In this document: one piece after another, positions 4,831 through 34,291 of the stretch
Position numbering within the stretch: position 1 is the first letter of the stretch
How the letters are laid out: each line of letters opens with the position of its first letter
From: Escherichia coli
Lineage (GTDB): Bacteria; Pseudomonadota; Gammaproteobacteria; Enterobacterales; Enterobacteriaceae
Strand: one strand, 5' to 3'
Length of the DNA: 64,000 nucleotides
Assembly: GCF_041248615.1 (NCBI RefSeq)
Contig: NZ_CP158426.1
The notes under the pieces: generated by a model
Database searches by the model: none
What the model was told of the DNA's origin: nothing
The model's input: the letters and a program-made list of their open reading frames with translations, nothing else
Position numbers and translations under genes: made by a program

Positions 4831-4909
4831 GTTACTGTTGAGGTAATGATTATGCGTATCTGGTTTGATGTCAATAGATATGAGTTAAAAAAATTACCCA
4901 TAAGGTAAT
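4831..4909 (-). promoter_or_regulatory. Leftward early (PL-like) promoter with two operator sites
   Basis: On the minus strand: -35 TTGACA (4869-4874), 16-nt spacer, -10 TAATCA (4847-4852). Operators are GTTACTGTTGAGGTAAT (4831-4847) and ATTACCCATAAGGTAAT (4893-4909), with centres 62 bp apart. Confidence 0.6.
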
Positions 4910-4921
4910 CTTGTTGGCAAT

Positions 4922-4943
4922 AAAAAAGCCGCCATAAGGCGGC
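4922..4943 (-). terminator. Rho-independent terminator after the repressor gene
   Basis: GCCGCC-TTAT-GGCGGC followed by TTTTTT on the minus strand. Confidence 0.8.
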
Positions 4944-4965
4944 TTACTTACTGAAAAATATGATT

Positions 4966-5550
4966 TTATTGTTTGTTTTTTTCGTTCTGGTTGATGACAA
5001 ATTCAATGTAACTTTCGATCTTTGCCTTCTCTGTTTCAGGTAACAATGCGTAGCGCGAGCGGTCATAGTTGATAGTTGCAGGGTCATGCGGATGAATCAG
5101 TAGTTCATATCCGTGACGCCCGAATGCAGATGCAACATTCTCCAGGGTGGAAATGGAAACGCTGACTTCATTGTTTAACAGGCGGCTTATTGTCACCTGG
5201 GCGACGCCGGATGCGCGGTGAAGTTTTCCCTGAGTTGAAAGGTCGCGGCTTTCACTCATCCAGCGTTCCAGGTTGTGAGCTGCCAGCTGACCAATGTCGC
5301 TTGGGCCGACAGGCTGAAAACCTTCCTGAGAAAGCGAGCGATCGATATCAAGCCAGTTACGGGGTTTATTGGCGGCAGCTTCAATTTTTCGCGCAACCTG
5401 GTCGCCGATAACCTTCTTGCCAAGAGCCCAGCGGTTTACCAGATTTGCCTGAGTTCCAAGTTTTTCTGCCATCCGCGTCTGAACACCATTGAATTCACGG
5501 TCGATCAAGTCGTTGAGATTTTGCCTGCGGACGTCCTGGATACTTTTCAT
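4966..5550 (-). CDS. Prophage repressor (CI analogue) with two HTH units and no peptidase domain
   Basis: It lies between the leftward and rightward operator clusters and is divergent from a Cro-like gene. XRE-type HTH units are at about residues 25-50 and 115-145. No S24-type Ser/Lys autocleavage motif is visible. Confidence 0.75.
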   Translation of the reverse strand: MKSIQDVRRQNLNDLIDREFNGVQTRMAEKLGTQANLVNRWALGKKVIGDQVARKIEAAANKPRNWLDIDRSLSQEGFQPVGPSDIGQLAAHNLERWMSESRDLSTQGKLHRASGVAQVTISRLLNNEVSVSISTLENVASAFGRHGYELLIHPHDPATINYDRSRYALLPETEKAKIESYIEFVINQNEKNKQ

Positions 5551-5604
5551 TTTCTGGAAAATCGCCTCATATATGAATCAGTAGATGATTCAATTTAAAG
5601 CAAT

Positions 5605-5672
5605 ATTACCCAACAGGTAAATGCACCTCATAGGTAACTATCCTTGATTTTTGTTACCTTATGGGTGAATAT
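5605..5672. promoter_or_regulatory. Rightward operator cluster (OR-like) with divergent promoters
   Basis: Three 17-bp sites at 5605, 5622 and 5653. The plus-strand promoter is TTGATT (5644-5649), 17-nt spacer, GAATAT (5667-5672), and spans the third site. Confidence 0.6.
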
Positions 5673-5704
5673 TTATTATCTGAAATAAATATCAGGCAAT
5701 AGCT

Positions 5705-5935
5705 ATGAGCGATAACGGACATTTCGATTTCAAAAAGCACTGGCTTGCACTTACTCCGGATGAGCGTGAAGCCTTCGCACAGGAAGCCGGAACGACGAGT
5801 CACTATATCCAGACTCACTTAACAGGTAAGCGCAAAATGCCAGGTAAAGTATTGATGAATGGGCTTTTTAAAGCCTGTAAAACAAGACAATGGCTGCGCT
5901 CAAAAGCAGAACTGGCATACTTCTTCTACTCATGA
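5705..5935 (+). CDS. Cro/YdaS-like HTH regulator
   Basis: 76-aa protein divergent from the repressor gene. HTH-like segment EAFAQEAGTTSHYIQTHLTGKRKM. Confidence 0.6.
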   Translation: MSDNGHFDFKKHWLALTPDEREAFAQEAGTTSHYIQTHLTGKRKMPGKVLMNGLFKACKTRQWLRSKAELAYFFYS

Positions 5936-5957
5936 TATCCAGCCACAACCCTCTGTA

Positions 5958-5979
5958 GACCGCCACCCGGCGGTCTTTT
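5958..5979 (+). terminator. Rho-independent terminator after the cro-like gene
   Basis: GACCGCC-ACCC-GGCGGTC followed by TTTT. Confidence 0.75.
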
Positions 5980-5989
5980 CATATCTATT

Positions 5990-6006
5990 CGTACCTCAAA
6001 GGTAAT
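5990..6006. promoter_or_regulatory. Operator-type site CGTACCTCAAAGGTAAT
   Basis: Matches the dispersed ACC-N5-GGTAAT palindrome. It sits directly after a terminator and directly follows ATATCTATTCGTA, whose last four bases (CGTA) are its first four. Confidence 0.5.
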
Positions 6007-6085
6007 AAAAAACCAAATCTGGTTGATCTTTTTTTTGTGTCAGCACAAAATGACCGTAATCCCAATACTAATAACAGGGCTTACC

Positions 6086-6286
6086 ATGGAAATCATTACA
6101 CGTATTGATGCCGCAAAGCGCGGACTTAAACGCTACTACACCGGAAAAACATGTAAGCACGGACATGACAGTGAACGCTGGGTTTACAACGGACACTGTG
6201 TTGAGTGCACCATGGAATCAAACCGTCGCATCAGGGCAGAGATTAAGCAGATCATGATTAATTCCTCCCCACAACATTCAAGCTGA
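6086..6286 (+). CDS. Small zinc-ribbon-like phage protein
   Basis: YYTGKTCKHGH...NGHCVECT motif. I prefer the ATG at 6086 over the upstream TTG at 6023. Confidence 0.55.
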   Translation: MEIITRIDAAKRGLKRYYTGKTCKHGHDSERWVYNGHCVECTMESNRRIRAEIKQIMINSSPQHSS

Positions 6287-6301
6287 TAGCGGAGATTAAT
6301 C

Positions 6302-7117
6302 ATGAGCAGACATGCAACAGATTGGGCCTGGGAGACAGATCCAGGTAGCTCGTCATTAAAGCTCATACTGCTCTCGATGGCTGACAGAGCCGATGAATAT
6401 AACCTCTGCTACCCCAGCATAGAACGCCTCGTTAAAGACACTTGCCTGAATAAAAAAACCGTGCAGGCCGGGCTTATATCGCTCATGAAAATGGGGCTTA
6501 TTTCAGATACCGGAGAGAGAAAGGGGGCGACGAAAAGAGTACGGGTTTTCTCTCTTAATATAACCAAAAACGGGAACATTAAAGGCAACCGGGAGGGGGG
6601 TAATGAACCCGAAAACGGTAATGTTACCGAAAACGGGAATATACCCAAAAACGGGATGTTGAATGATCCCAAAAACGGGATGTTGAATGATCCCAAAAAC
6701 GGGATCCAGAACCAGTCATATAACCAGTCATTTAACCAAGAGAGGGAGAGCAGGACAAAAAGCGGGGATTCTGTGCCTCATGACCCCGGCGCAAACAACG
6801 CCGTGATGAATAACTTTGTTCCTCCTGGTGGGCCAGGGCAATTAGGCAAATTTGTCATGCATGAACAATGGCAGCCATCAGATGACTTTCTTCGGAAAAG
6901 CTCATTGCAGGGGATCTACCTGGACAGTCTGCCAACGGCACAGGAACTTGCAGAGTTCAGAATTTACTGGATGGCTGAGGGTAAGGCATACCATCAGGCA
7001 CAGTGGGAGCAGAAGCTGGCAAGGCGGCTGCAGATTAGCAGACAGAAGCAATCAACATTACCTGATAACAACGTTCCGCACTGGAACAGCCCTGAAGCAT
7101 GGGAGGATTTCTTGTGA
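6302..7117 (+). CDS. Replication initiator (lambda O-like) with internal origin repeats
   Basis: N-terminal winged-helix region (LKLILLSMADRADEYNLCYPSIERL), central repeat-encoded segment (PKNGMLND x2), and a C-terminal region followed by a P-like gene. Confidence 0.7.
   Translation: MSRHATDWAWETDPGSSSLKLILLSMADRADEYNLCYPSIERLVKDTCLNKKTVQAGLISLMKMGLISDTGERKGATKRVRVFSLNITKNGNIKGNREGGNEPENGNVTENGNIPKNGMLNDPKNGMLNDPKNGIQNQSYNQSFNQERESRTKSGDSVPHDPGANNAVMNNFVPPGGPGQLGKFVMHEQWQPSDDFLRKSSLQGIYLDSLPTAQELAEFRIYWMAEGKAYHQAQWEQKLARRLQISRQKQSTLPDNNVPHWNSPEAWEDFL
6564..6705. repeat. Putative origin iterons (six copies of CC[C/G]AAAACGG[G/T]A), including 24-bp tandem repeats
   Basis: Copies start at 6564, 6608, 6626, 6644, 6668 and 6692. 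The last three are spaced exactly 24 bp apart. They are followed by AACCAGTCAT(A/T)T direct repeats. Confidence 0.7.
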
Positions 7118-7899
7118 ACAACGTTTTTACCGCGATACAAAACCGTGACGGAGAAGCCCTTTCTCGCATGTCAGGTTATGAGCATCAGTACGTCAACAAT
7201 GACAATGTGGTGAACATGTCAGCAGAGAGGCTTGTTGATGCCCTTTTTAAACAGCTGAAACAACTGTTTCCGGCGGCAGTGGTAACCAACCTGAAGACGC
7301 CAGAGCAGGAAGTTGCTGCAAAACAGCAGTGGATTGCTGCGTTTGCCGAAGGGGGGATCCGAACCCGTGAACAGGTTTCTGCTGGTATGCGCCACGCCCG
7401 CGCCAGTGAATCTCCGTTCTGGCCGTCTCCAGGGCAATTTATCAAGTGGTGCAAAGACAGCAAGATGGTTCTTGGCGTCACCATTGACGATGTGATGGCG
7501 GAGTTTCACCGGTACAGCAAGGAAAAAAGTTTATATCCTGGTGGTCCCGAAAGATTCCCGTGGCGACATCCGGTTATGTACTGGGTCGTATGTGATACCC
7601 GCCGTGCAATGTATCAGCGCCAGCTTAGCGAGATTGAGGTTGAGAAACACGCGCGCAGGCTGCTCGATGATTGGGCGAAAAAGGTGGCTTCCGGACAGCA
7701 GATACCCGATCCGGTGATCAGCATACAGGCAAAGCCAGAACCCATGAGTACACCTCCGGACACAGGGAGAGACGTTTACCATCCACCAGGGCGAAGTTTC
7801 GGGTGCATGCCTAACGCCGCCACCCTTGGGGGAATAACACCGGCGCAGTGGCTGATGGAGGAATACAGGCGGGGAAAGGCGGCAGGATTTATCAAGTAA
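7114..7899 (+). CDS. Replication protein P-like helicase loader
   Basis: AAKQQWIAAFAEGGIRTREQVSAGMRHARASESPFWPSPGQFIKWC is typical of the lambda P family. GTG at 7114 follows a GGAGG RBS; an alternative ATG is at 7099. Confidence 0.75.
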   Translation: MNNVFTAIQNRDGEALSRMSGYEHQYVNNDNVVNMSAERLVDALFKQLKQLFPAAVVTNLKTPEQEVAAKQQWIAAFAEGGIRTREQVSAGMRHARASESPFWPSPGQFIKWCKDSKMVLGVTIDDVMAEFHRYSKEKSLYPGGPERFPWRHPVMYWVVCDTRRAMYQRQLSEIEVEKHARRLLDDWAKKVASGQQIPDPVISIQAKPEPMSTPPDTGRDVYHPPGRSFGCMPNAATLGGITPAQWLMEEYRRGKAAGFIK

Positions 7900-7935
7900 T
7901 ACCAGCGCGATAGCGCATTTTTTTACGCCTCGACA

Positions 7936-8014
7936 ATTACCTGTTAGGTAATAAAATATTCTAAAATCTATTGATTTCGTGTCTTATGTGGTTTTTAATT
8001 ACCTCAGAGGTAAA
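7936..8014 (+). promoter_or_regulatory. Promoter of the next rightward unit, with two operators
   Basis: -35 TTGATT (7971-7976), 17-nt spacer, -10 TTTAAT (7994-7999). Operators at 7936-7952 and 7998-8014 have centres 62 bp apart, the same geometry as the leftward promoter. Confidence 0.55.
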
Positions 8015-8016
8015 TC

Positions 8017-8370
8017 ATGAGAAAACAGATACAGGCTCTTGGTCGACTCAAAACAGGTCAGATGAACAAAACAGAATCTGCGTATTGCCAGCACCTTGAG
8101 CTGCGTAAACGTGCAGGAGAAATCGTCTGGTATCGATTTGAGGGTATCAAGCTGCGGTTAGCTGACAACTGCTTCCTGACTGTAGATTTTGCCGTGATGT
8201 TGGCTGACGGGCAGTTGGTGATGGTGGACGTTAAGGGAAGTAAGTCAGTCTTTACTGACGATGCGAGAGTCAAGATGAAGGTTGCGGCAGACAGCTATCC
8301 GTTTGTCTTTCAGGTTGCTTATCCAAAACCTAAAAAGCTCGGTGGTGGATGGGAGGTTGAGGAACTATGA
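8017..8370 (+). CDS. DUF1064-like phage protein (putative PD-(D/E)XK nuclease/resolvase)
   Basis: 117 aa. The ESAYCQHLELRKRAGEI...VDVKG pattern resembles DUF1064. Confidence 0.55.
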   Translation: MRKQIQALGRLKTGQMNKTESAYCQHLELRKRAGEIVWYRFEGIKLRLADNCFLTVDFAVMLADGQLVMVDVKGSKSVFTDDARVKMKVAADSYPFVFQVAYPKPKKLGGGWEVEEL

Positions 8371-8975
8371 GCGAGAAGCCCAATGCTGCGGGATTGATTG
8401 TATCCGGTGATAAAAACCCGAATTGGAAGGGTGGGAAAATCGAAAAGGTTTGTTCCGTATGTGGCAGGCAATATCAGGTTAAGCGAGCCAACTCATCTTC
8501 AAGGTTCTGCTCACTTCAGTGTGTAGGAATTTCACAGCGAGGCAAGACGGTAAATCGGGAACTAAAGCGAGTATTAAAAATATGCTGCGTATGCGGATCT
8601 TCGTTCTCCGTTTTCTTGAGTCATGAGAAGCGTCATAAATGCTGCTCGAAACAGTGTTCCAACATAATGCGTTCTTCTCTGATGAAGGGGGAAGGAAATC
8701 CAAACTGGTCTGGTGGATTATCGAGATTGCCGTATCCGTGGGATTTCCGAGAAACGAGCAAGAGGGTTATTGAGCGAGATGGTTTTACTTGTCAGAACCC
8801 AGGTTGTGATGGAACAGACAAAAGGCTAACAACTCATCACATCAATTACGACAAGCAAGACTGTCGTCAGGAGAACCTTATTTGCCTTTGTTCGAGCTGT
8901 AACTCGAAGGCTAATTTCGGTCGGCATAAGTGGCAAAAGTTTTATGAATCACTGATGAAAAATAGATCGGCATGA
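8367..8975 (+). CDS. HNH endonuclease with N-terminal zinc-ribbon repeats
   Basis: C-terminal HNH motif (TTHHINYDKQDCRQENLICLCSSCNSKAN). Two NPNW(K/S)GG motifs and several CxxC clusters. Confidence 0.75.
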   Translation: MSEKPNAAGLIVSGDKNPNWKGGKIEKVCSVCGRQYQVKRANSSSRFCSLQCVGISQRGKTVNRELKRVLKICCVCGSSFSVFLSHEKRHKCCSKQCSNIMRSSLMKGEGNPNWSGGLSRLPYPWDFRETSKRVIERDGFTCQNPGCDGTDKRLTTHHINYDKQDCRQENLICLCSSCNSKANFGRHKWQKFYESLMKNRSA

Positions 8976-9036
8976 ATCGACGATCTTTTTAGTTATCAAT
9001 GTAATCAATAAGTTATGCGGATAAGCGAGGGTAAAG

Positions 9037-9618
9037 ATGGAAAGTAATATCAAAGGGTTAGTTGCCGCCGGGCATGAGATGGCTTCGGAACTGAAAGCAG
9101 AATGTGGTGCCGTTGATATGCGTAGTGTGGCAAAGCTGATCAGCGATTTGGCAACGCAACTGGAAGTGCAACTGGTGCGTGCTAATGCGCTGGCCGAAGA
9201 CCAACAGAAAGCGATTGAGTCAATTAAGCAGGCTGATTCGGCTGTTAAGTTGGCACACGAGAAGTTTTCGGCGCTGGCAGCGGAGAATGCAAAGCTGAAG
9301 AAGTTCTGCAAAGACGCTGCATTCGATGCCGATTACGAAGCAGAGCTAGGTATGGAGAGAGGTGGATTCAGTGATGCGCTTAACGAAATCAAAACCCCAG
9401 CCACCGATGCTTTCCTGGCTGAAGTGCGGGCGCAGGGCGTGGATGCTGCTATAGAAGCTGCAAAAAATCTGGTGGCCCAAGAATATGAGTATAAGGATTT
9501 CAAAGCGGCGCAGAGTGATTGCTGTATGCACCCTGGTTCAGACCTGGTAGGGAAGGTTGAAATAACTGAGTGGTTAGTTGACTTTGCTGCCCAGCTTCGC
9601 AAAGGAGGCAACCAGTGA
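9037..9618 (+). CDS. Ead/Ea22-like protein
   Basis: Coiled-coil protein whose ATDAFLAEVRAQGVD...FAAQLR tail is typical of Ea22-like prophage proteins. Confidence 0.6.
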   Translation: MESNIKGLVAAGHEMASELKAECGAVDMRSVAKLISDLATQLEVQLVRANALAEDQQKAIESIKQADSAVKLAHEKFSALAAENAKLKKFCKDAAFDADYEAELGMERGGFSDALNEIKTPATDAFLAEVRAQGVDAAIEAAKNLVAQEYEYKDFKAAQSDCCMHPGSDLVGKVEITEWLVDFAAQLRKGGNQ

Positions 9619-10100
9619 CTGGACATGCAGCAATCCTCGACATGTGCTGTGGCAGTCGCATGTTCTGGTTCGATAAGAATGACGACCGGGCGATATTTAG
9701 CGATATCAGAAAGGAAGAGCACACATTGTGTGATGGACGACGGCTGATAATTAGCCCTGACCTGATAGCAGATTTTCGTGCATTACCATTTGCAGACGCA
9801 TCGTTTCCGGTTGTTGTATTCGACCCTCCGCATCTTGAGCGTGTTGGTGATAACGCTTGGATGGGAAAGAAATATGGACGGCTGAATAAAGATACCTGGC
9901 GTGATGATTTGCAGCAGGGATTTAAAGAAGCCTTTCGTGTGTTGTGGCCATACGGCGTTCTGATTTTTAAATGGAATGAAACGCAAATACCTGTTCGCCA
10001 AATATTGGCACTGACCGACAGAAAGCCTGTTATCGGTCAACGAACAGGAAAGGGTGACAAGACCCACTGGATTATTTTTATGAAGGAGGGCAACCAGTGA
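9615..10100 (+). CDS. SAM-dependent DNA methyltransferase (DPPH motif)
   Basis: LDMCCGS (SAM-binding motif I) and VVFDPPH (catalytic motif IV). GTG start 6 nt after an AGGAGG RBS. Confidence 0.7.
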   Translation: MTGHAAILDMCCGSRMFWFDKNDDRAIFSDIRKEEHTLCDGRRLIISPDLIADFRALPFADASFPVVVFDPPHLERVGDNAWMGKKYGRLNKDTWRDDLQQGFKEAFRVLWPYGVLIFKWNETQIPVRQILALTDRKPVIGQRTGKGDKTHWIIFMKEGNQ

Positions 10101-10864: not shown

Positions 10865-10865
10865 T

Positions 10866-11414
10866 ATGACCACTATAACCGATAAGAAACAGTATCCCAG
10901 CGAGCAATATCTTAATGAGCTGATCACCAACATAGAGTTTGCTGCAAGGGCACCAGTTGAAGTCGTGAGAGCGATGGCAGCAGAGCTACAGAAGCGGCGC
11001 GAAGCTGATAGTGCAGAACCTGCAAGTAATCATGAAGAGTTGCCGCTTGATTATCTCCAAGGTCAAAAAGATGGTCTTGAATGGGCTGCGCAGCTTGCAG
11101 AAGCAAATCACCCACAAACTGGCGACTGGCTTTACGATGACCCGCTGGAGCTGGCTAAAGCTATCAGAAAAGGTCCTGACATGCCCGAATTCGATGGACC
11201 AACTCCGGTAACTCCGGATGGTTGGATAAGCTGTAGTGAGCGAATGCCCGCTCAAGATGATTGGATTTTAATTTATTCAAAGCACGGCGAGTATATGGCA
11301 GGACAGGTACAAGGGGAATACGTGGAGTTGAGCGACGGCACTTTATCGTGGTTAGGGAACGCCTTGTACTGGATGCCTCTACCGGAACCGCCGCAGGAGG
11401 TTAACCGTGGCTAA
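10866..11414 (+). CDS. DUF551 domain protein
   Basis: ATG at 10866 after a GGAG RBS. The C-terminal WISCSERMP...WMPLPEPP is typical of DUF551. Confidence 0.65.
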   Translation: MTTITDKKQYPSEQYLNELITNIEFAARAPVEVVRAMAAELQKRREADSAEPASNHEELPLDYLQGQKDGLEWAAQLAEANHPQTGDWLYDDPLELAKAIRKGPDMPEFDGPTPVTPDGWISCSERMPAQDDWILIYSKHGEYMAGQVQGEYVELSDGTLSWLGNALYWMPLPEPPQEVNRG

Positions 11415-11688
11415 CCTGCAACTAGCCGTTAAAGGTGAATACTTCGATGCCATCATTCGCGGAGAGAAAACGGAAGAGTATCGCCTGTGTAATGACTACT
11501 GGAATAAGCGAATTATGTTCAGGGATTATGACCGACTGATTATCACAAAGGGATATCCGAAGCGCGACGACTCCAGTCGTAGAATTGACGTCCCGTATGA
11601 CGGATATGAAATCAAGACAATCACACATCCCCACTTCGGCGATAAACCGGTAAAGGTATACGCGATAAAGGTAAATATTGATGGCTAA
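11407..11688 (+). CDS. ASCH/PUA-like domain protein
   Basis: VKGEYFDAIIRGEKTEEYR pattern; 93 aa. Confidence 0.55.
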   Translation: MANLQLAVKGEYFDAIIRGEKTEEYRLCNDYWNKRIMFRDYDRLIITKGYPKRDDSSRRIDVPYDGYEIKTITHPHFGDKPVKVYAIKVNIDG

Positions 11689-12019
11689 ATCAGCAGCAGA
11701 GCGCAAAGCCGCTCAGAGAGCCAGACAAGCTGCATCTGGTGTGCGTAAGCTGGAGATTGTGCTTGATGCTCAGGAAATTGAAATGCTGGAGCGTAACTGC
11801 GCCGCCCGGCGCCCTGGTCGAGATCCCTATGAAATGGCCGAGTACATCGCGCTGCTGATCCGCCAGGATGATGCCCGGGTGCGCGGGCGTATAAAATCGA
11901 TCAGCAGAAAACGTTGCGGTAAGTGCGGCGAGAGAGTTCCAGTTAATTCATGCCCGTGCAATGGTGACTCGCAATGCTGGGTGACTAAAGGCTGGCATGA
12001 AACGAAATTAATAGTGTGA
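11681..12019 (+). CDS. Hypothetical protein with C-terminal Cys cluster (possible late regulator)
   Basis: CGKCGERVPVNSCPCNGDSQC. It is the last gene before the terminase operon. The regulatory role is only inferred. Confidence 0.5.
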   Translation: MAKSAAERKAAQRARQAASGVRKLEIVLDAQEIEMLERNCAARRPGRDPYEMAEYIALLIRQDDARVRGRIKSISRKRCGKCGERVPVNSCPCNGDSQCWVTKGWHETKLIV

Positions 12020-12027
12020 CATGTCAC
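12016..12027. repeat. Perfect palindrome GTGACATGTCAC (copy 1 of 3)
   Basis: Exact 12-mer, also present at 14281 and 31824. Confidence 0.9.
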
Positions 12028-12068
12028 GAGTAGATTATGCATGATGAATTTGATGTGTTTTGAATACT

Positions 12069-12094
12069 GCCGCCAACTATGGCGGCTTTATTTT
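12069..12094 (+). terminator. Rho-independent terminator ending the early-right region
   Basis: GCCGCC-AACTAT-GGCGGC followed by TTTATTTT. Confidence 0.75.
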
Positions 12095-12104: not shown

Positions 12105-12139
12105 ATTACCACAACGGTAACTATTACCACGGTGGTTAT
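12105..12139. promoter_or_regulatory. Two operator-type sites upstream of terS
   Basis: ATTACCACAACGGTAAC (12105) and ATTACCACGGTGGTTAT (12123). They lie within the direct repeat ACTATTACCAC x2. Confidence 0.5.
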
Positions 12140-15250: not shown

Positions 15251-15329
15251 GTTACCTGAAAGGTAATAATTTGTGCGTTAAATGTCAACTGTCTACGATA
15301 AATAAATCATATGTGGTTAAATTGGTAAT
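15251..15329. promoter_or_regulatory. Divergent control region upstream of the portal operon
   Basis: Operator GTTACCTGAAAGGTAAT (15251-15267) and variant GTGGTTAAATTGGTAAT (15313-15329) have centres 62 bp apart. CATATGTGGTT motif at 15308-15318. Confidence 0.5.
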
Positions 15330-15356
15330 AATTTAATTGCGTACGGAGTCATTGAT

Positions 15357-19748: not shown

Positions 19749-20084
19749 ATGTCAGGTGAGAAACCAAGATACCGCGTTCTGCGCCTCTCTCATATCCATA
19801 ACACACTGTGGCCGGAGGGGGCAGAAATCGAATACGAAGGTGAGCCTGGTAGCGCACTGGAACCTGTTAACGATGCAGCCAGACAGGCAAAAGCAAAAGT
19901 TGCAGGAAAGGTGTCTATGGCAGCAACCAGCATCAAAATCATCAACGATGTGTCAGATGATGGTGAACTGGATAAGCTCCGTGAAGAGTACGAATTGCTC
20001 TTTAACGAGAAGCCACACCATAACGCCAAAGCAGAAACGCTCCGCGAGAAGATCGCAGATAAGCGTAAAGAACTGGGCGTGTAA
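19749..20084 (+). CDS. Hypothetical head-module protein
   Basis: ATG at 19749 after a GGTG RBS. Followed by a terminator. Confidence 0.55.
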   Translation: MSGEKPRYRVLRLSHIHNTLWPEGAEIEYEGEPGSALEPVNDAARQAKAKVAGKVSMAATSIKIINDVSDDGELDKLREEYELLFNEKPHHNAKAETLREKIADKRKELGV

Positions 20085-28855: not shown

Positions 28856-28860
28856 ATTAA

Positions 28861-31335
28861 ATGAGACAGGAATGTATACAAGCGGTCCAGCAGGCGGCGC
28901 AGCGCACGTTAACGGCGCGAGAAATACAGAACATTGAAGACCGCATTTATCGAAATATGCGCTCCATTGCTCGTGATGACCCGATGTCGTGGAGACAACT
29001 TTCCGAATCAGAGCGGCTATATCGTGCAGCACAATTGGCATCTGAGGAATTACAGCGAGAAGCGGCATTAAAGAAACGTCGTGTGGCCCTCACTATAGCC
29101 GCACGTCAGAGATTGGATAAATTTATCAATAGCTATCAAGGGGCTGATGGGAAACTTGGCGCTCTTAACCGTACTATTGCTTTTAATGCAGACGGTAAAT
29201 CGAATTTCCTCTCTGTTGAGTCCAGAACAAAAGCCACTCGTGATTATGCATTGAGTCAATTGCAGGAGGCATTCGAAGCAGTTGATCCTCGCTTTTTTGG
29301 TCTGTTTGAAGATGAAGCGGGCGTACGTGACCTGGTATATGAAATGCGAGGGCAAAATACTGGCAATTCTAAAGCAAGAAAAGGTGCTAAGGCGTGGAGA
29401 GAAGTGACAGATCTACTGCGCCGCCGGTTTAATGATGCTGGTGGGGACATTGGCTATCTCGAAAACTGGGGGATCCCTCAGCATCATTCTATGGAAAAGG
29501 TTGGGGCGGTATCAAAGGATAAGTGGGTTAGCGATGTTATAGGTAAGCTGGATCGCAAATATTATATCCGAGCCGATGGACAACTGATGAACGATGCCGA
29601 GTTGTCTGCATTTCTTGGAGAGGCTTATAACACGATCGCTACTGGTGGGCTGAATAAGCTTACTGATACCGGAATGCGAATTTCCGGCGCACGTGCTAAC
29701 CGTGGTAATGCATCACGACAGATACATTTCAAAGATGCAGATTCCTATCTGCAATATCAGCAACTTTATGGCGATCGCTCTCTATGGGAAATCATGGTCG
29801 GTCACCTGGAAGGTATCAGTAAAGATATTGCACTGGTGGAAACATATGGCCCAAACCCCGATCATGTTTTCCGCTCTCTTCTTGATCAGGTGAAGGCAGA
29901 AACGGCAACAGCTAACCCGAGTAAAACCGGTAAAGTCGAGCGGCTGGCGAACAACACAGAGAATCTGTACAACTTTATTTCCGGAAAGACACAGCCTGTA
30001 GCGAATCCGCACATCGCGCGATGGTCTGACAATATCCGCAACTGGCTGGTTGCCAGCAGACTCGGATCTGCGTTGCTATCATCGTTCTCTGATCTTGGAA
30101 CCATGTATCTGTCTGCGAAGGTGACCAACCTTCCAATGAACCAGTTATTCCGCAACCAGCTTGAAGCTATGGACCCAACGAACCGTACAGAACTTGCGCG
30201 GGCGCGCCGCGCTGGTCTGGCGATGGAATCTCTACTTGGCAGCGTTAACCGCTGGGCGATGGATAATATGGGGCCGTCAGTGTCTCGTTGGGCGGCAACG
30301 GCGGTAATGCGTGCCAGTGGGCTTACAGCATGGTCAGATGCGCACAAGCGCGCCTATGGCGTAACCATGATGGGAAGCCTGGGAGAAGTAGTGTCACGGA
30401 CACCAGACCTTCGTAGCCTCGATGATTCTGATTTTCGTATCCTGAAAAGCAAAGGGATTACTGACACAGACTGGAGCGTATGGAAGCTGGCGCAACAGGA
30501 GGACTGGGGGAACGGTAATAATACGATGCTGACACCGGAAAGCATTATGCGTATCCCTGATTCAGCAGTTAAACATCTTGGTGAGCCTGAGCGCGTGAAA
30601 TTTGAGGCAATGCGTAAATTGCTAGGTGCCGTAACTGAAGAAGTTGATATGGCTGTTATTACACCGGGAGCTCGTGAGCAACTGATAACCGGTTCTGGTA
30701 TTCAGCGTGGAACATGGAAAGGTGAATTAACGAGAAGTGTTTTCCTGTTTAAATCTTTCCCTATCTCGGTTGTTATGCGTCACTGGTCACGCGCTATGGG
30801 TATGCCGTCTGCTGGTGGGCGTGCGGCATATATTGCGACGTTTATTGCCAGTACGACCATTCTTGGCGCTTTGTCGCAGCAACTTAACGACCTTGCGTCT
30901 GGTCGTAATCCTCGAGAGATGACAGGAGAAGATGCCGCAAAATTCTGGCTTGGTGCTCTACTGAAAGGTGGTGGTCTTGGCCTTTACGGTGACTTTTTAT
31001 TGTCAGATCACACCAGGTACGGAAGCGGCGCGCTGGCGTCGATGCTTGGCCCGGTAGCTGGTCTGGTTGATGACGTGGTGAAGATTGCTCAGGGCATACC
31101 GTTAAATGCTGTGGAAGGGAAGAGTGAGCAGACTGGTGGTGATCTGGTGAAGCTGGGGAAAGGTTTGATGCCTGGTGCGAATCTCTGGTATTTGAAGGCG
31201 GCTCTCGATCACATGATCTTTAACCAGATGCAGGAGTATTTTTCACCAGGCTATTTGCGTAAAATGGAGCAACGTTCGAAGAAAGAGTTTAACCAGACAT
31301 ACTGGTGGCGACCTCAGGATGTCACTCCGCAATAA
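28861..31335 (+). CDS. Large internal virion (ejection) protein
   Basis: 824 aa with C-terminal hydrophobic segments. It is the last large gene of the injection module. Confidence 0.55.
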   Translation: MRQECIQAVQQAAQRTLTAREIQNIEDRIYRNMRSIARDDPMSWRQLSESERLYRAAQLASEELQREAALKKRRVALTIAARQRLDKFINSYQGADGKLGALNRTIAFNADGKSNFLSVESRTKATRDYALSQLQEAFEAVDPRFFGLFEDEAGVRDLVYEMRGQNTGNSKARKGAKAWREVTDLLRRRFNDAGGDIGYLENWGIPQHHSMEKVGAVSKDKWVSDVIGKLDRKYYIRADGQLMNDAELSAFLGEAYNTIATGGLNKLTDTGMRISGARANRGNASRQIHFKDADSYLQYQQLYGDRSLWEIMVGHLEGISKDIALVETYGPNPDHVFRSLLDQVKAETATANPSKTGKVERLANNTENLYNFISGKTQPVANPHIARWSDNIRNWLVASRLGSALLSSFSDLGTMYLSAKVTNLPMNQLFRNQLEAMDPTNRTELARARRAGLAMESLLGSVNRWAMDNMGPSVSRWAATAVMRASGLTAWSDAHKRAYGVTMMGSLGEVVSRTPDLRSLDDSDFRILKSKGITDTDWSVWKLAQQEDWGNGNNTMLTPESIMRIPDSAVKHLGEPERVKFEAMRKLLGAVTEEVDMAVITPGAREQLITGSGIQRGTWKGELTRSVFLFKSFPISVVMRHWSRAMGMPSAGGRAAYIATFIASTTILGALSQQLNDLASGRNPREMTGEDAAKFWLGALLKGGGLGLYGDFLLSDHTRYGSGALASMLGPVAGLVDDVVKIAQGIPLNAVEGKSEQTGGDLVKLGKGLMPGANLWYLKAALDHMIFNQMQEYFSPGYLRKMEQRSKKEFNQTYWWRPQDVTPQ

Positions 31336-31344
31336 GGAAGTGTT

Positions 31345-31518
31345 GTGTTTTTAATTATTTTGAGTGTAATAATTTCTGGTGGATTGTTATTTATTGACCA
31401 CTACAAATATTTTCTTAACCCTCAGACTCAAGCTATTTGCTGGTTCATCTTTGTTGTGCAGGGAGTAGTTCTTGTTGCAAGCCTTATTGAGGGGAGGCCT
31501 CTTATTTTTACTGGGTAA
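31345..31518 (+). CDS. Possible 57-aa two-pass membrane protein (not in the ORF track)
   Basis: GTG at 31345 after an AAGGAAG RBS. Sequence FLIILSVIISGGLLFIDHYKYFLNPQTQAICWFIFVVQGVVLVASLIEGRPLIFTG. AT-rich. Confidence 0.45.
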   Translation: MFLIILSVIISGGLLFIDHYKYFLNPQTQAICWFIFVVQGVVLVASLIEGRPLIFTG

Positions 31519-31530
31519 ATAGGTGACTAC

Positions 31531-31827
31531 ATGCAAGCTATAGGATTCATTGTTTATATCGTCGTTGGTCTTTTTCAGTTGGCAGCAATTATGGCTGGGC
31601 TTGAATCATGGTGGGGATTGCACTGGATAATTGCAGCCCCCATCGCTTTCATCGTGAGCTATATTCCATTTGTTGGAGCGATTGTTGGTATGGTTGGCGC
31701 TGTGGATGTATGGCGGTGGGAGTGGTGGCAGGCTGGCCTTCTATTCTTTGGTGGGATAATCTTTGCTATTGTCTGCGGTGGAATGTCATCATTTTTCGAA
31801 TGGCTATCATTCAGAAAAGAGACGTGA
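31531..31827 (+). CDS. Small integral membrane protein (98 aa, about 3 transmembrane helices (TM))
   Basis: Very hydrophobic and Trp-rich. It is the last plus-strand gene before the accessory island. Confidence 0.6.
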   Translation: MQAIGFIVYIVVGLFQLAAIMAGLESWWGLHWIIAAPIAFIVSYIPFVGAIVGMVGAVDVWRWEWWQAGLLFFGGIIFAIVCGGMSSFFEWLSFRKET

Positions 31828-31835
31828 CATGTCAC
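31824..31835. repeat. Perfect palindrome GTGACATGTCAC (copy 3 of 3)
   Basis: Exact 12-mer overlapping the stop codon and abutting the terminator. Confidence 0.9.
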
Positions 31836-31860
31836 AGGCCGCTTTCGCGGCCTTGTTTTT
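31836..31860 (+). terminator. Rho-independent terminator at the end of the late structural operon
   Basis: AGGCCGC-TTTC-GCGGCCT followed by TGTTTTT. Confidence 0.8.
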
Positions 31861-32020
31861 AACGAATGCCACCGCCGCCCGGGCGGGAATCCGCAGAACG
31901 CCCACCGCAGCGGGAGCCGTCAGCGGCAGTATCGCTGTCGTGCTGACAACGGCCGGCAAAGGCCTGAGTTGAAGCTACCAGAGACAACAAAACGAACAGT
32001 GCAGCAAATGCTTTTTTCAT
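31859..32020 (-). CDS. Small secreted Gly/Cys-containing peptide (53-aa precursor)
   Basis: Signal peptide MKKAFAALFVLLSLVASTQAFA, then GRCQHDSDTAADGSRCGGRSADSRPGGGGIR. ATG at 32020. Confidence 0.55.
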   Translation of the reverse strand: MKKAFAALFVLLSLVASTQAFAGRCQHDSDTAADGSRCGGRSADSRPGGGGIR

Positions 32021-32035
32021 TGTGAAAAATTTCCA

Positions 32036-32063
32036 TCTATAAGCCACCTCAATGTGGCGTCAA
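32036..32063 (-). promoter_or_regulatory. Sigma70-type promoter for the small secreted peptide gene
   Basis: On the minus strand: TTGACG (32058-32063), 16-nt spacer, TATAGA (32036-32041). No operator motif is nearby. Confidence 0.5.
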
Positions 32064-32094
32064 TGAGTGTAGCACTGACTTTTGTTTCGTCCAC

Positions 32095-32116
32095 AAAAAA
32101 GCCCGCAGCGCGGGCT
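32095..32116 (-). terminator. Rho-independent terminator after the 179-aa gene
   Basis: AGCCCGC / GCGGGCT stem followed by TTTTTT on the minus strand. Confidence 0.8.
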
Positions 32117-32655
32117 TACCAAAACTTGTACCACGGGGATTTATCCTTCAATGGACAATCCTTCCATCGTGTGGCCAACCATTCATATTCTTTAAAATAT
32201 GTGTTTATGTTTTCTTTTTCTCTAATGGCTTGTATAAGAGGTAGCGCAATCTGATAGTTATTTACAACGGAGCTGTAAAATACTTCCTTAATCATGGTCT
32301 CATCATAAGTTTTCCGCTTCACGCTCACAGCCATGCGTTCGTAGAAACCTAGACAGTAAATTATTTCTCTCTTCTCTGTCTTTTCTTCATCCGTAAGATC
32401 AGCCTGCCCATTGCTTGGATACATATAAGAGCGGAATGATTTGTTCGATTCGTGAATGCGGCGCATAGTAGATAGGCCTTTCTTATAATCTACATCAAAC
32501 CTGCTTTCACCAAGGAATACTGAAGTGTGTACTTTTCTCGCTGTATTTACATTATAAATAATAGTAGCGATAGCTATGAACAAGCCAAGCGAAACCGCGA
32601 CTGCACTTACGATTTGAGCCACAGCCATGGCAAATTGCATTTCTTCACTTAACAC
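32116..32655 (-). CDS. Membrane-anchored accessory protein (179 aa), possibly DUF4760-like
   Basis: N-terminal TM helix (AMAVAQIVSAVAVSLGLFIAIATIIY) and a helical cytoplasmic domain ending EYEWLATRW. AT-rich. GTG start with a GGAG RBS. The family call is from memory. Confidence 0.7.
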   Translation of the reverse strand: MLSEEMQFAMAVAQIVSAVAVSLGLFIAIATIIYNVNTARKVHTSVFLGESRFDVDYKKGLSTMRRIHESNKSFRSYMYPSNGQADLTDEEKTEKREIIYCLGFYERMAVSVKRKTYDETMIKEVFYSSVVNNYQIALPLIQAIREKENINTYFKEYEWLATRWKDCPLKDKSPWYKFW

Positions 32656-32670
32656 AAACTGTCTCCAGAC

Positions 32671-32696
32671 ATGAAAACGGGGCCTAATGGCCCCGT
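32671..32696 (-). terminator. Strong intrinsic terminator immediately upstream of the 179-aa gene
   Basis: ACGGGGCC-ATTA-GGCCCCGT followed by TTTCAT on the minus strand, about 20 nt before the RBS. Confidence 0.75.
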
Positions 32697-32714
32697 CATT
32701 AAACTATCCGAATG

Positions 32715-32747
32715 TTAAACGCCTTCGTACTCGTCAAATTTTCTCAT
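32715..32747 (-). CDS. 10-codon mini-ORF (MRKFDEYEGV) with a strong RBS
   Basis: AGGAGG lies 7 nt before the ATG. The ORF sits between an operator site and the terminator. Whether it is translated is unknown. Confidence 0.25.
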   Translation of the reverse strand: MRKFDEYEGV

Positions 32748-32783
32748 GTGGGCTCCTCCTGTATCGGTGCCTAATCGCTATGG

Positions 32784-32800
32784 ATCACCCGTGAGGTAAT
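32784..32800. promoter_or_regulatory. Operator-type site ATCACCCGTGAGGTAAT
   Basis: Matches the dispersed palindrome. On the minus strand a TACTAT -10-like hexamer abuts it. Confidence 0.5.
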
Positions 32801-32865
32801 AGTAAGCTATTCACCTGCAATCTGTACAGAATTATTTAAAGGCACATCCCTGTGCCGCCGCCCCG

Positions 32866-33576
32866 TCAGAAGAACCCTGCCTTGTCGTTGATGTATTCCG
32901 CGTGAGTCTGGATATCACGCAGGCATTTGCTCACACCGACGATGTAGCAAAACATGGTGGTCAGCTCCGCCGCCGCGCCCGATACGTCGTGCCCGTCGTC
33001 CTGTAACTGGTTCAGCAGATTCATCAGCAGTGAGTTCTCCGTCAGGCCGAGAACACCAGACGGAGAATGAATCAGACTGCGGTAGCCGGGCTTCAGTGGG
33101 GCGCTGTAGGTTTTGTTCTCTATCTTCATTGCCTGCATCACTGCTGATGCTGTGGCGTTGGCTACCTGGTCGGCAACCATCTTTATGCGTTCTTCCTGCG
33201 GGAGCGAGTTTTTAATGTAACTTCCGGTGCGGCGGATCTGAGGAAGAACCTCACCTGTAACCCATTTACGAAAGCGGTAGGGGATAGTGCCTGGTGTCAC
33301 CGCATCGCGGCAGCGGAGGATCAGTGTGTAGAGGCCTGACTCGGAGATGATGTTGATCTCTTTTACTCGGCTGTCAAAAATCGCACGATGTTCATGCCCT
33401 ATGTTGAACATAGACCTTTCATCATCATCCAGTTTTTCAAGTGATTGGGTGACGTTTTGGATACGCAGCGCACTACAAACGTCTTGGGCTACAAACCATG
33501 GTTGGCCATCGATAATGATGGAACGGATAGGGTTAACAGATTCAAATTTGAAGATGGCAGTTTGAGCATTAGCCAT
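32866..33576 (-). CDS. ant: Antirepressor (Bro-N domain plus C-terminal domain)
   Basis: IFKFESVNPIRSIIIDGQPWFVAQDVCSAL is a Bro-N/Ant N-terminus. ATG at 33576 has a GGAG RBS. The C-terminal roughly 70 aa are about 48% identical by eye to the 85-aa protein upstream. Confidence 0.8.
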   Translation of the reverse strand: MANAQTAIFKFESVNPIRSIIIDGQPWFVAQDVCSALRIQNVTQSLEKLDDDERSMFNIGHEHRAIFDSRVKEINIISESGLYTLILRCRDAVTPGTIPYRFRKWVTGEVLPQIRRTGSYIKNSLPQEERIKMVADQVANATASAVMQAMKIENKTYSAPLKPGYRSLIHSPSGVLGLTENSLLMNLLNQLQDDGHDVSGAAAELTTMFCYIVGVSKCLRDIQTHAEYINDKAGFF

Positions 33577-33730
33577 GGTGGTTATCTCCACTTAGTGATT
33601 TTAATCACCACCGCAACGCCAATTACTGGTGGTGAACTGGACAAGGTTGGCGTACCGGCCTAAGTGGTACCGGCGTCCTTTCGGACCCCTGCCCAGCCCA
33701 CCATAATTCGGATATAGCTGTGCTTAACGC

Positions 33731-33852
33731 ATAAAAAAACCACGTCTGGCGTGGTATGCGCCACTTAGTAACTCGGGACGCCAATCCCGGCACTGGATTT
33801 TGCCAGTGCCAGATTACTATGGCACAAGAGGAGTGCGATGTAAATTTACCGC
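33731..33852 (-). ncRNA. Candidate roughly 120-nt terminated leader RNA / small RNA upstream of ant
   Basis: It would start at the predicted promoter (33860-33888) and contains hairpins at 33789-33810 and 33775-33788. It ends at terminator ACCACG-CCAGA-CGTGGT + TTTTTTT (33731-33755). Confidence 0.4.
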
Positions 33853-33888
33853 AAAGGTAAATATAAGCACTCCAGTTGGTAATTGCAA
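33845..33888 (-). promoter_or_regulatory. Operator-controlled promoter upstream of the ant leader
   Basis: On the minus strand: TTGCAA (33883-33888), 17-nt spacer, TATATT (33860-33865). Operator TTTACCGCAAAGGTAAA (33845-33861) overlaps the -10 and +1. Confidence 0.55.
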
Positions 33889-33891
33889 ACC

Positions 33892-34149
33892 TTATCTGGT
33901 TTGTTTTCGTAATTGTTCGGCACAATAGTCGAGATGTGTTTGCAGATCCCGCATAGACATCTGTGAGCTGGTGACGTAGTTAATCAGTGCAGTCAGTTCG
34001 GCAAGTGGGCCATCGACATTAAATCCATCCTTATCGAGATCCCGGAGTAATTTCATCAAGTGCGATCCCTCCACCAGTGACCTGACGCCTCCCGGCGTGT
34101 GAATCCTTTCGGTAAATCCGTCTTCCAGTGGATAGTGATACTGCTGCAT
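33892..34149 (-). CDS. Small protein (85 aa) paralogous to the Ant C-terminal domain; putative second antirepressor
   Basis: ATG at 34149 with a GGAG RBS. A LexA box lies just upstream. The longer 126-aa ORF would run through the promoter/operator region. Confidence 0.65.
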   Translation of the reverse strand: MQQYHYPLEDGFTERIHTPGGVRSLVEGSHLMKLLRDLDKDGFNVDGPLAELTALINYVTSSQMSMRDLQTHLDYCAEQLRKQTR

Positions 34150-34168
34150 CTTATCTTCTCCATGCAAT

Positions 34169-34188
34169 AACTGTATATTTATACAGTA
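34169..34188. promoter_or_regulatory. LexA (SOS) box
   Basis: AACTGTATATTTATACAGTA, a perfect CTGT-N8-ACAG core with an AT-rich centre. It lies 20 nt upstream of the 85-aa gene. Confidence 0.8.
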
Positions 34189-34224
34189 GCAAATAATTTG
34201 TTTGCTATCCAGCACGTTTTGCAA

Positions 34225-34291
34225 ATCACCTGAAAGGTAATATCTATTCGTATTTACAGTCTTTCTATCCATATGTGGTTTTTCAGGTAAT
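34225..34291. promoter_or_regulatory. Divergent control region upstream of the tailspike gene
   Basis: Operator ATCACCTGAAAGGTAAT (34225-34241), ATATCTATTCGTA (34240-34252), and CATATGTGGTT-N5-GGTAAT (34270-34291). Confidence 0.5.

Follow-up and report, generated by a model that had tools for sequence, protein, structure and literature searches.

The window analyzed here is a stretch of 64,000 nucleotides from Escherichia coli (assembly GCF_041248615.1, contig NZ_CP158426.1). It corresponds to positions 1440001-1504000 of NZ_LT599825.1, the chromosome of E. coli NRZ14408. From position 1 to about 39250 it contains a prophage of the phiV10/epsilon15 type, the rest is host DNA, which includes yfgI, yfgH, pdeF, hda, arsC, bepA and other genes. 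The prophage is integrated at the 3' end of guaA, where the attL core attgagtgggaatgatt is found. Its immunity region shows 97-98% nucleotide identity to phiV10, PAS61 and phiv142-3, epsilon15-like podoviruses of the genus Uetakevirus, and it shares its gene order with phiV10. Identity to phiV10, gene order and integration site all place it in this genus. A 17 bp palindrome, ATTACC-N5-GGTAAT, is dispersed in the intergenic DNA of the prophage and appears to be the operator of its repressor Rep. These sites flank the repressor gene in the manner of left (OL) and right (OR) operators, and they are found at the head of most transcription units, as a first-pass annotation of the sequence had suggested. 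Two promoters are bracketed by sites exactly 62 bp apart, a spacing which is kept in related phages.

When up to two mismatches are allowed, the window contains 18 matches to the palindrome, against 1.94 expected from dinucleotide-preserving shuffles. We have also scanned the whole window with a symmetrised position weight matrix, built only from 11 epsilon15 sites in order to avoid circularity, with a cut-off of at least 10 bits. Fourteen matches are found in the prophage. One of them, at 37687, lies inside a holin gene, and it is the only match in about 35.8 kb of coding sequence. The other 13 are concentrated in intergenic DNA, which adds up to only 3,411 bases (8.7% of the prophage); shuffles of this intergenic sequence alone give 0.22 matches. 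The first-pass annotation listed 14 sites, and every one of these 17-mers is found at its position. The 13 intergenic matches, with scores from 10.6 to 24.4 bits, correspond to this list minus the site at 5622. It might be thought that the palindrome is a product of chance or base composition, with no protein bound to it: Intergenic sequence has a high A/T content, and a half-site (GGTAAT, then A/T) looks similar to a −10 element. This idea is already refuted by the enrichment over shuffles of the same DNA, and by the conservation of palindrome, positions and spacing in lineages whose flanking sequences have diverged, so that we give it practically no credit.

On the host side there is a match of 15.6 bits at 52600-52616 (TTTACCTGTTTGGTCAT), which overlaps the arsC start codon in the 20 bp gap after bepA. 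Nothing in its context supports it, and we have set it aside as a probable chance match.

The 14 sites had been described as all intergenic. This is true if terS starts at ATG 12141, and it fails with the start assigned by the Prokaryotic Genome Annotation Pipeline (PGAP), TTG 12060. We favour ATG 12141, since with this start the alignment to epsilon15 TerS begins at residue 1 (77% identity); TTG 12060 is probably wrong. The PGAP start, which is also the one in the phiV10 record, would cross the terminator hairpin and both terS operators.

The repressor Rep is a full-length homolog of SPC32H Rep. A phmmer search against the Protein Data Bank (PDB) matches 190 of its 194 residues (1-190) to 5D50_A, with an E value of 4e-42. 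The match covers the DNA-binding domain at the N terminus, the middle dimerisation domain and the C-terminal tetramerisation/Ant-binding domain. Rep is 100% identical to the repressors of phiV10 and ZX5. Its homologs in phage records form four groups: The phiV10 type, Enterobacter phages (75-78% identity), Klebsiella phages (45%) and the Salmonella phages epsilon15 and SPC32H (42%). All four groups share one operator consensus, which fits the selective conservation of the N-terminal domain: In an alignment with four relatives, 36 of its 70 columns are invariant, including the unbroken string NLVNRW, against 33 of 124 columns elsewhere. At the tetramer interface, the aromatic residue Phe190 of SPC32H is invariant, while the equivalent of Phe187 is a Tyr in the Rep of the window.

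The first-pass annotation had proposed that a repressor oligomer binds these sites. In agreement with this, it is as a tetramer that the homologous Rep of SPC32H binds DNA, and its dimeric form binds weakly (PMC9638917). Each DNA-binding pair uses domains of different dimers (PMC9638917; PMC9986798). The two DNA-binding ends of the tetramer are about 100 Å apart, and its tetramerisation domain shares its fold with that of the looping repressor Rco (PMC9986798). Repressor function has been described for ZX5, where overexpression of the repressor lowers holin and endolysin mRNA by more than 99.9%; no operators were mapped in that work (PMC9782041). Judging from the sequence comparisons, the palindrome is the Rep operator, and Rep is predicted to bind the sites of this prophage.

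In order to follow the sites in related phages, we have compared six genomes: The window prophage, phiV10, Tyrion, epsilon15, SPC32H and the Klebsiella phage BUCT711, which span four repressor lineages. The same motif and layout are found in all of them. Three pairs of sites had been reported as exactly 62 bp apart. The arithmetic is correct for all three, and two of them, 4831/4893 and 7936/7998, are true operator pairs. The third, 15251/15313, does not stand: With a score of −0.4 bits, the 17-mer at 15313 (GTGGTTAAATTGGTAAT) is no more than a GGTAAT half-site that forms part of another conserved element. The two true pairs are kept in the six genomes, with 62 bp in 11 of the 12 cases and 63 bp in the twelfth (Table 1). 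For an unbiased test, we have searched IMG/VR for pairs of operator cores, with every spacing from 47 to 77 bp admitted, which gives 174 pairs in 120 loci. A spacing of 62 bp is found in 118 of these pairs, 63 bp in 22 and 76 bp in nine, while every other spacing is found at most four times. In phages of the epsilon15 type, the second OL site and the third one form the 76 bp class. The 62 bp pairs represent 97 distinct sequences, which form 17 clusters at 85% identity. Shifts by one helical turn are essentially absent: There is one pair at 51 bp, and none at 52 bp or 72-73 bp. The possibility raised in the first-pass annotation, that related prophages do not keep the 62 bp spacing, is clearly contradicted by these results.

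Table 1. Operators, promoters and associated features of the prophage, followed by the operator pairs of the six genomes (first pair left of the repressor gene, second pair after the replication genes, distances from start to start) and the sites annotated in epsilon15. Promoters, terminators and operators are predictions; scores are those of the epsilon15 matrix.
Feature	Position (strand)	Sequence	Score (bits)	Remarks
OL downstream operator	4831..4847	GTTACTGTTGAGGTAAT	12.4	Centred at about +1 of PL
PL promoter	4846..4874 (-)			−35 TTGACA (4874-4869), 17 bp spacer, −10 AATCAT (4851-4846)
OL upstream operator	4893..4909	ATTACCCATAAGGTAAT	24.4	Centred at about −62 of PL; conserved in five-genome alignment
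Repressor-gene intrinsic terminator	4926..4945 (-)			8 bp stem with 6 GC pairs, then T-run; 17 bp before OL upstream operator
Repressor gene, Rep	4966..5550 (-)			194 aa, WP_000836290.1
OR site a	5605..5621	ATTACCCAACAGGTAAA	19.6	Conserved in OR alignment
OR site b (weak)	5622..5638	TGCACCTCATAGGTAAC	5.6	Abuts OR site a
OR site c	5653..5669	GTTACCTTATGGGTGAA	12.8	Within spacer of rightward promoter PR
Replication-unit operator	5990..6006	CGTACCTCAAAGGTAAT	12.6	After terminator 5957-5976; unit 6086-7899
P2 upstream operator (DUF1064 unit)	7936..7952	ATTACCTGTTAGGTAAT	23.3	Centred at about −62; after terminator ~7904-7924; conserved in six genomes
P2 promoter	7971..7999 (+)			−35 TTGATT (7971-7976), 17 bp spacer, −10 TTTAAT (7994-7999)
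P2 downstream operator	7998..8014	ATTACCTCAGAGGTAAA	17.9	Centred at about +1; includes Shine-Dalgarno of gene starting 8017
terS operators	12105-12121 and 12123-12139		18.1 and 10.6	18 bp apart; between terminator 12069-12086 and ATG 12141
Portal/structural operon single operator	15251..15267	GTTACCTGAAAGGTAAT	20.4	In all six genomes
Invariant 28 bp block	15308..15335 (+)	CATATGTGGTTAAATTGGTAATAATTTA		Identical in six genomes; always starts 58 bp after operator start
Operator of DUF4760 cassette	32784..32800	ATCACCCGTGAGGTAAT	14.2	Minus-strand upstream of 10-codon reading frame, terminator and DUF4760 gene
isrK-C4-BRO-N unit operator	33845..33861	TTTACCGCAAAGGTAAA	16.8	At about +1 of promoter
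Small antirepressor Ant	33892..34149 (-)			85 aa; SPC32H Ant homolog (PDB 5D50_E, E 1.4e-46)
LexA box (perfect)	34171..34186	CTGTATATTTATACAG		Pattern match in ant promoter region, 22 bp upstream of ant start codon; conserved in six genomes
ant/tailspike divergent-gene operator	34225..34241	ATCACCTGAAAGGTAAT	18.6	Conserved in six genomes
Second-motif block ahead of tailspike gene	34270..34296 (+)	CATATGTGGTTTTTCAGGTAATAGAAT		GTGGTT starts 50 bp after operator start, not 62
int-upstream operator	−191 to −175 (NZ_LT599825.1 1439809-1439825)	ATTACCTTAAAGGTATA		42-58 bp upstream of int start codon; outside the window
Operator pairs, window	4831/4893; 7936/7998			62 bp; 62 bp
Operator pairs, phiV10	31952/32014; 35069/35131			62 bp; 62 bp
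Operator pairs, Tyrion	34194/34256; 37264/37326			62 bp; 62 bp
Operator pairs, epsilon15	32554/32616; 35906/35968			62 bp; 62 bp
Operator pairs, SPC32H	33603/33665; 35971/36033			62 bp; 62 bp
Operator pairs, BUCT711	7123/7186; 4209/4271			63 bp; 62 bp
Annotated sites, epsilon15	12-27; 2931-2947; 19895-19911			Before terS; before portal unit; between gp19 and tailspike
Annotated sites, epsilon15 (continued)	32479, 32554, 32616; 35906-35922			Left of repressor gene; after replication genes

When the alignments are oriented by transcription, a single geometry is found at PL and P2 in every lineage, in which the centres of the two operators lie at about −62 and +1. The upstream operator is followed by an A/T-rich linker of 18 bp (19 bp in the 63 bp case), an invariant CTA with the −35 element, a 17 bp spacer and the −10 element. 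The −35 is TTGACA at PL, and TTGATT, TTGAAA or TTGATA at P2. The −10 is AATCAT, AATTAT or GATTAT at PL, and TTTAAT or TTAAAT at P2. In both promoters the −10 element and the downstream operator share two bases, the AT which ends the former and begins the latter. The alignments confirm the −35 and −10 positions which had been proposed for these two pairs. PL was found by a promoter scan, and its −35 is invariant in all lineages. P2 was missed by the consensus scan because its −10 lacks an A at position 2; its CTATTGA is invariant in the six genomes. The strongest promoter found by the scan at 7936 is a different one (TCGACA-16-TAAAAT, 7930-7957, 10 of 12 consensus positions), with the operator in its spacer. 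We have rejected it as the main promoter, its −35 is not conserved in any other lineage.

The register of −10 and operator seen at PL and P2 recurs on the minus strand at 33845, where a promoter (TTGCAA-17-TATATT, 33888-33860) overlaps the operator of the isrK-C4-BRO-N unit by 2 bp, and also at the junction of the two terS operators. Direct repression of each unit, as suggested in the first-pass annotation, is supported for most of them: At PL, the unit starting at 8017 and the isrK-C4-BRO-N unit, the −10 overlaps the first two bases of the operator, which makes direct occlusion credible. The predicted transcription starts would be at about 4839 (-), 8006 (+) and 33853 (-).

A different arrangement is found at OR. 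The centres of its three sites are 17 and 31 bp apart: Two abutting sites are followed by an invariant TTGATT −35 (5644-5649), and the third site fills the spacer of PR. The promoter scan gives TTGTTA-17-TATTAT (5651-5679) in this region. Site b at 5622 is most simply taken as a degenerate but genuine member of the operator family, because near-perfect sites hold the equivalent position in epsilon15, SPC32H and BUCT711. The first rightward gene (5705-5935), in the cro position beside OR, codes for a 76 aa protein which matches phrog_35 (transcriptional repressor) with an E value of 5.6e-13. In lambdoid phages, Cro shares the operators of the repressor. The palindromes might therefore be used mainly or equally by this Cro-like protein, for shutting down the early units during lytic growth and not for lysogeny. 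We find this unlikely: Binding of the Cro-like protein would complement that of Rep without excluding it, the operator consensus goes along with the conserved DNA-binding domain of Rep, and the annotators of epsilon15 assigned the sites to the repressor.

OL also differs between phages. A third operator is found 74-76 bp downstream of the +1 site in epsilon15 (32478-32494), SPC32H (33527-33543) and BUCT711 (7260-7276), after a small hairpin and directly before the first early-left gene. It is absent from the window prophage and from phiV10, and a segment of about 70 bp is absent from the window and from Tyrion. The int-upstream operator is conserved in phiV10, epsilon15, SPC32H, Tyrion and BUCT711.

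In the replication unit, the operator at 5990 is followed by a 16 bp linker, an invariant −35 (GGTTGATC, 6023-6028), a 17 bp spacer and a CAAAAT −10 (6046-6051). This −10 overlaps a degenerate half-site, ATGACC, at 6050. The spacing between this half-site and the operator is 59-60 bp, and it varies with the lineage.

The sites had also been said to follow almost every intrinsic terminator, which is an overstatement. There are four clear modules of terminator and operator, with terminators at 4926-4945, 5957-5976, ~7904-7924 and 12069-12086; they stand before PL, the replication unit, the DUF1064 unit and terS. At 33845 and 32784 the order on the transcribed strand is reversed, with the operator first and the terminator downstream of it; in the case of 33845, this is because the terminator is that of isrK itself. 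Several terminators of the prophage have no operator at all. On the minus strand, the operator at 32784 is followed by an open reading frame of ten codons (MRKFDEYEGV, 32753-32721), with a strong AGGAGG ribosome-binding site, and then by an intrinsic terminator (32707-32684) and the DUF4760 gene. The region 32684-32800 may be a leader or attenuator. The lysis unit (36928-37343) has no Rep operator in this prophage, while one is present in phiV10 (24691), epsilon15 (24703), SPC32H (24781) and Tyrion (26407). The lysis genes of the window prophage come directly after the tailspike gene, with no O-antigen modification gene between them.

The arrangement of two operators before terS is also found in phiV10, Tyrion, epsilon15 and SPC32H. 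Only a poor promoter candidate is found here (TTGCAT-19-AACTAT). Some sites, above all this pair and others that directly follow a terminator and precede a start codon, could act as roadblocks which silence read-through transcription, similar to the stoperators of mycobacteriophages, rather than as controls of a local promoter. The position of the terS operators between a terminator and the ATG would suit such a role, at sites 7998 and 12123 the operator and the ribosome-binding site of the following gene overlap, and repressors which halt elongation at many dispersed sites are known (PMC9283540). On the other hand, stoperators are asymmetric and orientation-dependent, whereas the sites described here are palindromic, and most of them overlap conserved −10 or −35 elements. 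In fact, the junction of the terS operators always gives a −10-like AAYTAT, in the register of PL. A roadblock at terS is possible, it fits poorly with palindromic sites overlapping promoters, and in general we regard this explanation as rather improbable.

A small antirepressor, Ant, is homologous to that of SPC32H, and a predicted LexA box lies in its promoter region (Table 1). The small Ant is nearly identical to SPC32H Ant in an alignment, although the two Reps are only 42% identical. Because homologs of Rep and Ant and a predicted LexA box are all present, the prophage appears to carry the full Rep/Ant/LexA switch described for SPC32H. Between the promoter at 33845, presumably controlled by Rep, and the BRO-N antirepressor gene there are two RNAs detected with Rfam: The Hfq-binding small RNA isrK (33733-33809, minus strand, 67 bits) and a C4 antisense RNA (33625-33708, minus strand, 66 bits). 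This cassette resembles P1 immI and Gifsy-1 isrK-anrP (PMC4825925). Residues 155-231 of the BRO-N protein (32866-33576, minus strand) are homologous to the small Ant (5D50_E, E 2e-13). There are thus two proteins of the Ant type in this prophage, the small Ant with its LexA box and the BRO-N protein with an Ant-like C-terminal domain.

The conserved element which was mistaken for a third partner at 15313 belongs to a second motif. The invariant block of the portal operon and the block ahead of the tailspike gene have a common core, CATAT-NN-GGTT. We have rejected 15313 as a weak Rep site: Apart from its low score and single half-site, its tailspike counterpart is 50 bp from the operator, and not 62. 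Exact copies of this core are found four times in the prophage (15308-15318, 34270-34280, 34297-34307 on the minus strand, and 37271-37284), six times in phiV10 and four times each in SPC32H and epsilon15. All 18 copies are intergenic, even though intergenic DNA is only 7-9% of each genome. They stand ahead of the portal unit, the tailspike unit and the lysis unit, and some genomes also have a copy at the replication unit; copies with one mismatch are found in the replication unit of this prophage (6014-6024) and at P2 (7983-7993). The lysis unit of the window keeps the motif (37271-37284), although the operator of its relatives is lost. The position of the motif relative to the −35 and −10 elements differs between units, therefore it is not a core promoter element. 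When compared by eye with sites for CRP and IHF, the DnaA box, sigma-54 promoters and the extended −10, none fits. It is probably the site of a phage regulator, and we have met no description of it in the literature covered, so that it may be new.

The first-pass annotation had opposed direct repression to an antitermination cascade. Repression of individual units is supported, as we have seen, but the exclusion of such a cascade is not: There are no good promoters at the late units, which carry the second motif, and there is a candidate for their regulator. In the portal and tailspike units, no convincing sigma-70 promoter is found in any conserved register. A leftward promoter for the tRNA-Arg/Gp49 unit (TAGACA-18-AATTAT, 15295-15266) was rejected, since its −35 is not conserved; at 15251 an invariant TTGAC on the leftward strand is only 12-13 bp from a −10-like hexamer. 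Where lambdoid phages have Q, the final gene ahead of the terS terminator codes for a protein of 112 aa (11681-12019, plus strand) which belongs to phrog_536 ("transcriptional regulator") and has no match in PDB, Pfam or NCBIfam. It is a candidate late regulator. The prophage also encodes proteins of the PerC and AlpA families. The early units look as if they were individually driven by promoters and controlled by Rep, while late units probably need an additional positive step beyond the release of Rep.

These data suggest a mechanism which, taken as a whole (Rep operators, direct repression of each unit, cooperative −62/+1 pairs, induction by Ant and an extra late factor), we consider quite probable. 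Rep would be a protein with two helix-turn-helix (HTH) domains, of the epsilon15/SPC32H type, which binds its operators as a tetramer. The prophage would be split into short transcription units, several of them insulated by an intrinsic terminator, each with its own Rep-controlled promoter. At PL, P2 and the isrK/C4/ant promoters, Rep bound to an operator centred on the start would block RNA polymerase directly. The second operator of PL and P2, 62 bp upstream, would most likely serve for cooperative binding: The DNA-binding ends of one tetramer, or of interacting tetramers, would hold the two sites on one face of the helix, with the promoter enclosed in a small loop. The three OR sites would cover the rightward promoter and, probably, that of the repressor itself. 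Induction would take place when the small Ant, under LexA control, inactivates Rep, as in SPC32H. The portal, tailspike and terS units would have operators plus, probably, an additional positive factor.

Looping of the promoter between the −62 and +1 sites is plausible, and we favour it because the tetramer has two DNA-binding ends, the dimer binds weakly, 62 bp is about 5.9 helical turns, and the length of the linker is held while its sequence drifts. Several facts weigh against the proposed mechanism. At terS, portal, tailspike and site 32784, no convincing sigma-70 promoter overlaps the operator, and the −10 of P2 lacks the usual A. A distance of 62 bp corresponds to about 210 Å of DNA, against about 100 Å between the DNA-binding ends of the tetramer (PMC9986798), therefore bridging would need sharp bending, and no site for a bending protein is evident between the paired sites. 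In addition, 27 of the 45 intervening bases are fixed by the geometry of RNA polymerase, so that only the length of the 18 bp linker is independent evidence of a constraint on spacing.

The main rival to looping makes use of the same facts. The paired sites might act independently, the +1 site blocking the open complex, and the −62 site blocking contacts of the alpha subunit with a UP-like linker or raising the local amount of Rep. The fixed distance would then reflect the geometry of promoter and UP element, and not bridging by a protein. Every lineage has an A/T-rich linker separating the upstream operator from the −35, most of the intervening bases belong to −35, spacer and −10, and the contour length between sites is twice the end distance of the tetramer. 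Besides, the P2 module has no indels from terminator to start codon in five of the six genomes, which means that its conservation is general. This explanation does not account so well for a linker kept at 18 bp (19 in one lineage) in 17 clusters of varying sequence, nor for a distance close to a whole number of turns of the helix. A tetramer with two DNA-binding ends, whose dimers bind weakly (PMC9638917), would also be expected to engage two sites. We consider independent action rather unlikely, and cooperative binding with a looped promoter is still our preferred reading for the pairs. At OR, sites b and c, 30-31 bp or about 100 Å apart, could in our opinion be spanned by one tetramer on nearly straight DNA.

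We may go one step further and suggest, tentatively, that each −62/+1 pair is the target of a single tetramer, which closes a tight micro-loop of 62 bp, and that CATAT-NN-GGTT is the site of a regulator, possibly the phrog_536 protein. Both proposals are speculative. If the first part is true, a repressor with a p53/Rco-like tetramerisation fold shuts the early promoters of Uetakevirus by fixing the length of the loop, and not only its helical phase. If the second part is true, nearly every middle or late unit needs two keys, release of Rep and action of the regulator.

Outside these control regions, we have detected an ATG-initiated open reading frame of 202 aa (8367-8975, plus strand), which PGAP does not annotate. 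Its weak similarity to HNH sequences, those of IscB and ZorE, suggests that it may be a missed gene for a homing or HNH endonuclease.

The closest known system is that of epsilon15 and SPC32H. The first-pass annotation had mentioned that a similar operator was described for epsilon15, so that the motif might not be new. This is correct, and the dispersed layout is not new either: The epsilon15 record (AY150271.2 / NC_004775.2) has seven features annotated as "protein_bind, repressor, lysogeny" (Table 1). They are exactly the perfect palindromes found by our scan, while the OR sites and the +1 partner of P2 are omitted. The phiV10 record has annotated terminators and no operators. In each feature which could be compared, the window prophage appears to be a member of the Rep-operator-Ant system of epsilon15 and SPC32H: It shares the consensus and dispersed positions of the operator, homologous Rep and Ant proteins, the LexA box at ant and the 62 bp pairs. 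It differs from them in several respects. Its Rep is only 42% identical overall, with a conserved DNA-binding domain; the third OL site and the lysis-unit operator are missing; OR site b is degenerate; and there are extra operators at the isrK-C4-BRO-N and DUF4760 cassettes.

Our results are an incremental refinement of this known system, and they do not overturn its current understanding. Some modest points may be new: An operator map of the E. coli lineage, a −62/+1 geometry that two promoters keep unchanged throughout the genus, and the second motif. We have met no description of two promoters bracketed by sites exactly 62 bp apart, so this may be new, with the primary epsilon15 and SPC32H papers lying outside the literature covered. 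A comparative operator map for the E. coli (phiV10-type) branch is of interest for a group of phages used in O157 detection and serotype conversion. The −62/+1 pair gives a concrete DNA target for the structurally solved tetrameric repressor of the SPC32H type, whose mechanism of repression "has not been extensively characterized", according to a paper which cites the SPC32H Rep structure. The second motif is a lead to the control of late genes in these phages.

Other phages also have one repressor acting at many scattered sites. The C1 repressor of P1 has 22 dispersed operators of 17 bp, and it also controls an antirepressor operon (immI) with a C4 antisense RNA (PMC8546580). Direct control of many scattered units by one repressor, and a C4 RNA, are thus common to P1 and to this prophage. 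The operators of P1 are asymmetric (ATTGCTCTAATAAATTT), in contrast to the palindromes described here, and no fixed 62 bp pairing is reported in those parts of the P1 literature which we have been able to read. Rep only matches HTH domains of the Cro/C1 type in Pfam (HTH_3, HTH_26 and related ones), which gives no link to P1 C1, although the two sequences were not directly compared. Mycobacteriophages of the L5 type also have many repressor sites in short intergenic gaps (PMC9283540; PMC1934351). Their stoperators are asymmetric, bound by a monomer and orientation-dependent, and they stop elongation, unlike the palindromic sites of this prophage, which mostly overlap promoters.

In a Gram-positive host, phage phiC31 reportedly has a 17 bp inverted repeat, bound by its repressor, which recurs in intergenic DNA beside early promoters and terminators (work of Ingham et al. 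in 1994). Its repressor and motif are unrelated to those described here, and we know of no fixed spacing between its sites.

As regards cooperative binding, lambda CI is said to bind cooperatively to operators placed 5-6 helical turns apart, according to Hochschild and Ptashne in 1986. To our knowledge, looping has been demonstrated for no Rep of Uetakevirus. Lambda CI, gal OE/OI, lac O1/O3 and Rco of pLS20 resemble the system described here: A promoter is bracketed or flanked by two operators which share one face of the helix, and the repressor is tetrameric. The difference lies in the spacing, in our case a fixed distance of 62 bp between operators at about −62 and +1, and in the repetition of this arrangement at two promoters of the same genome.

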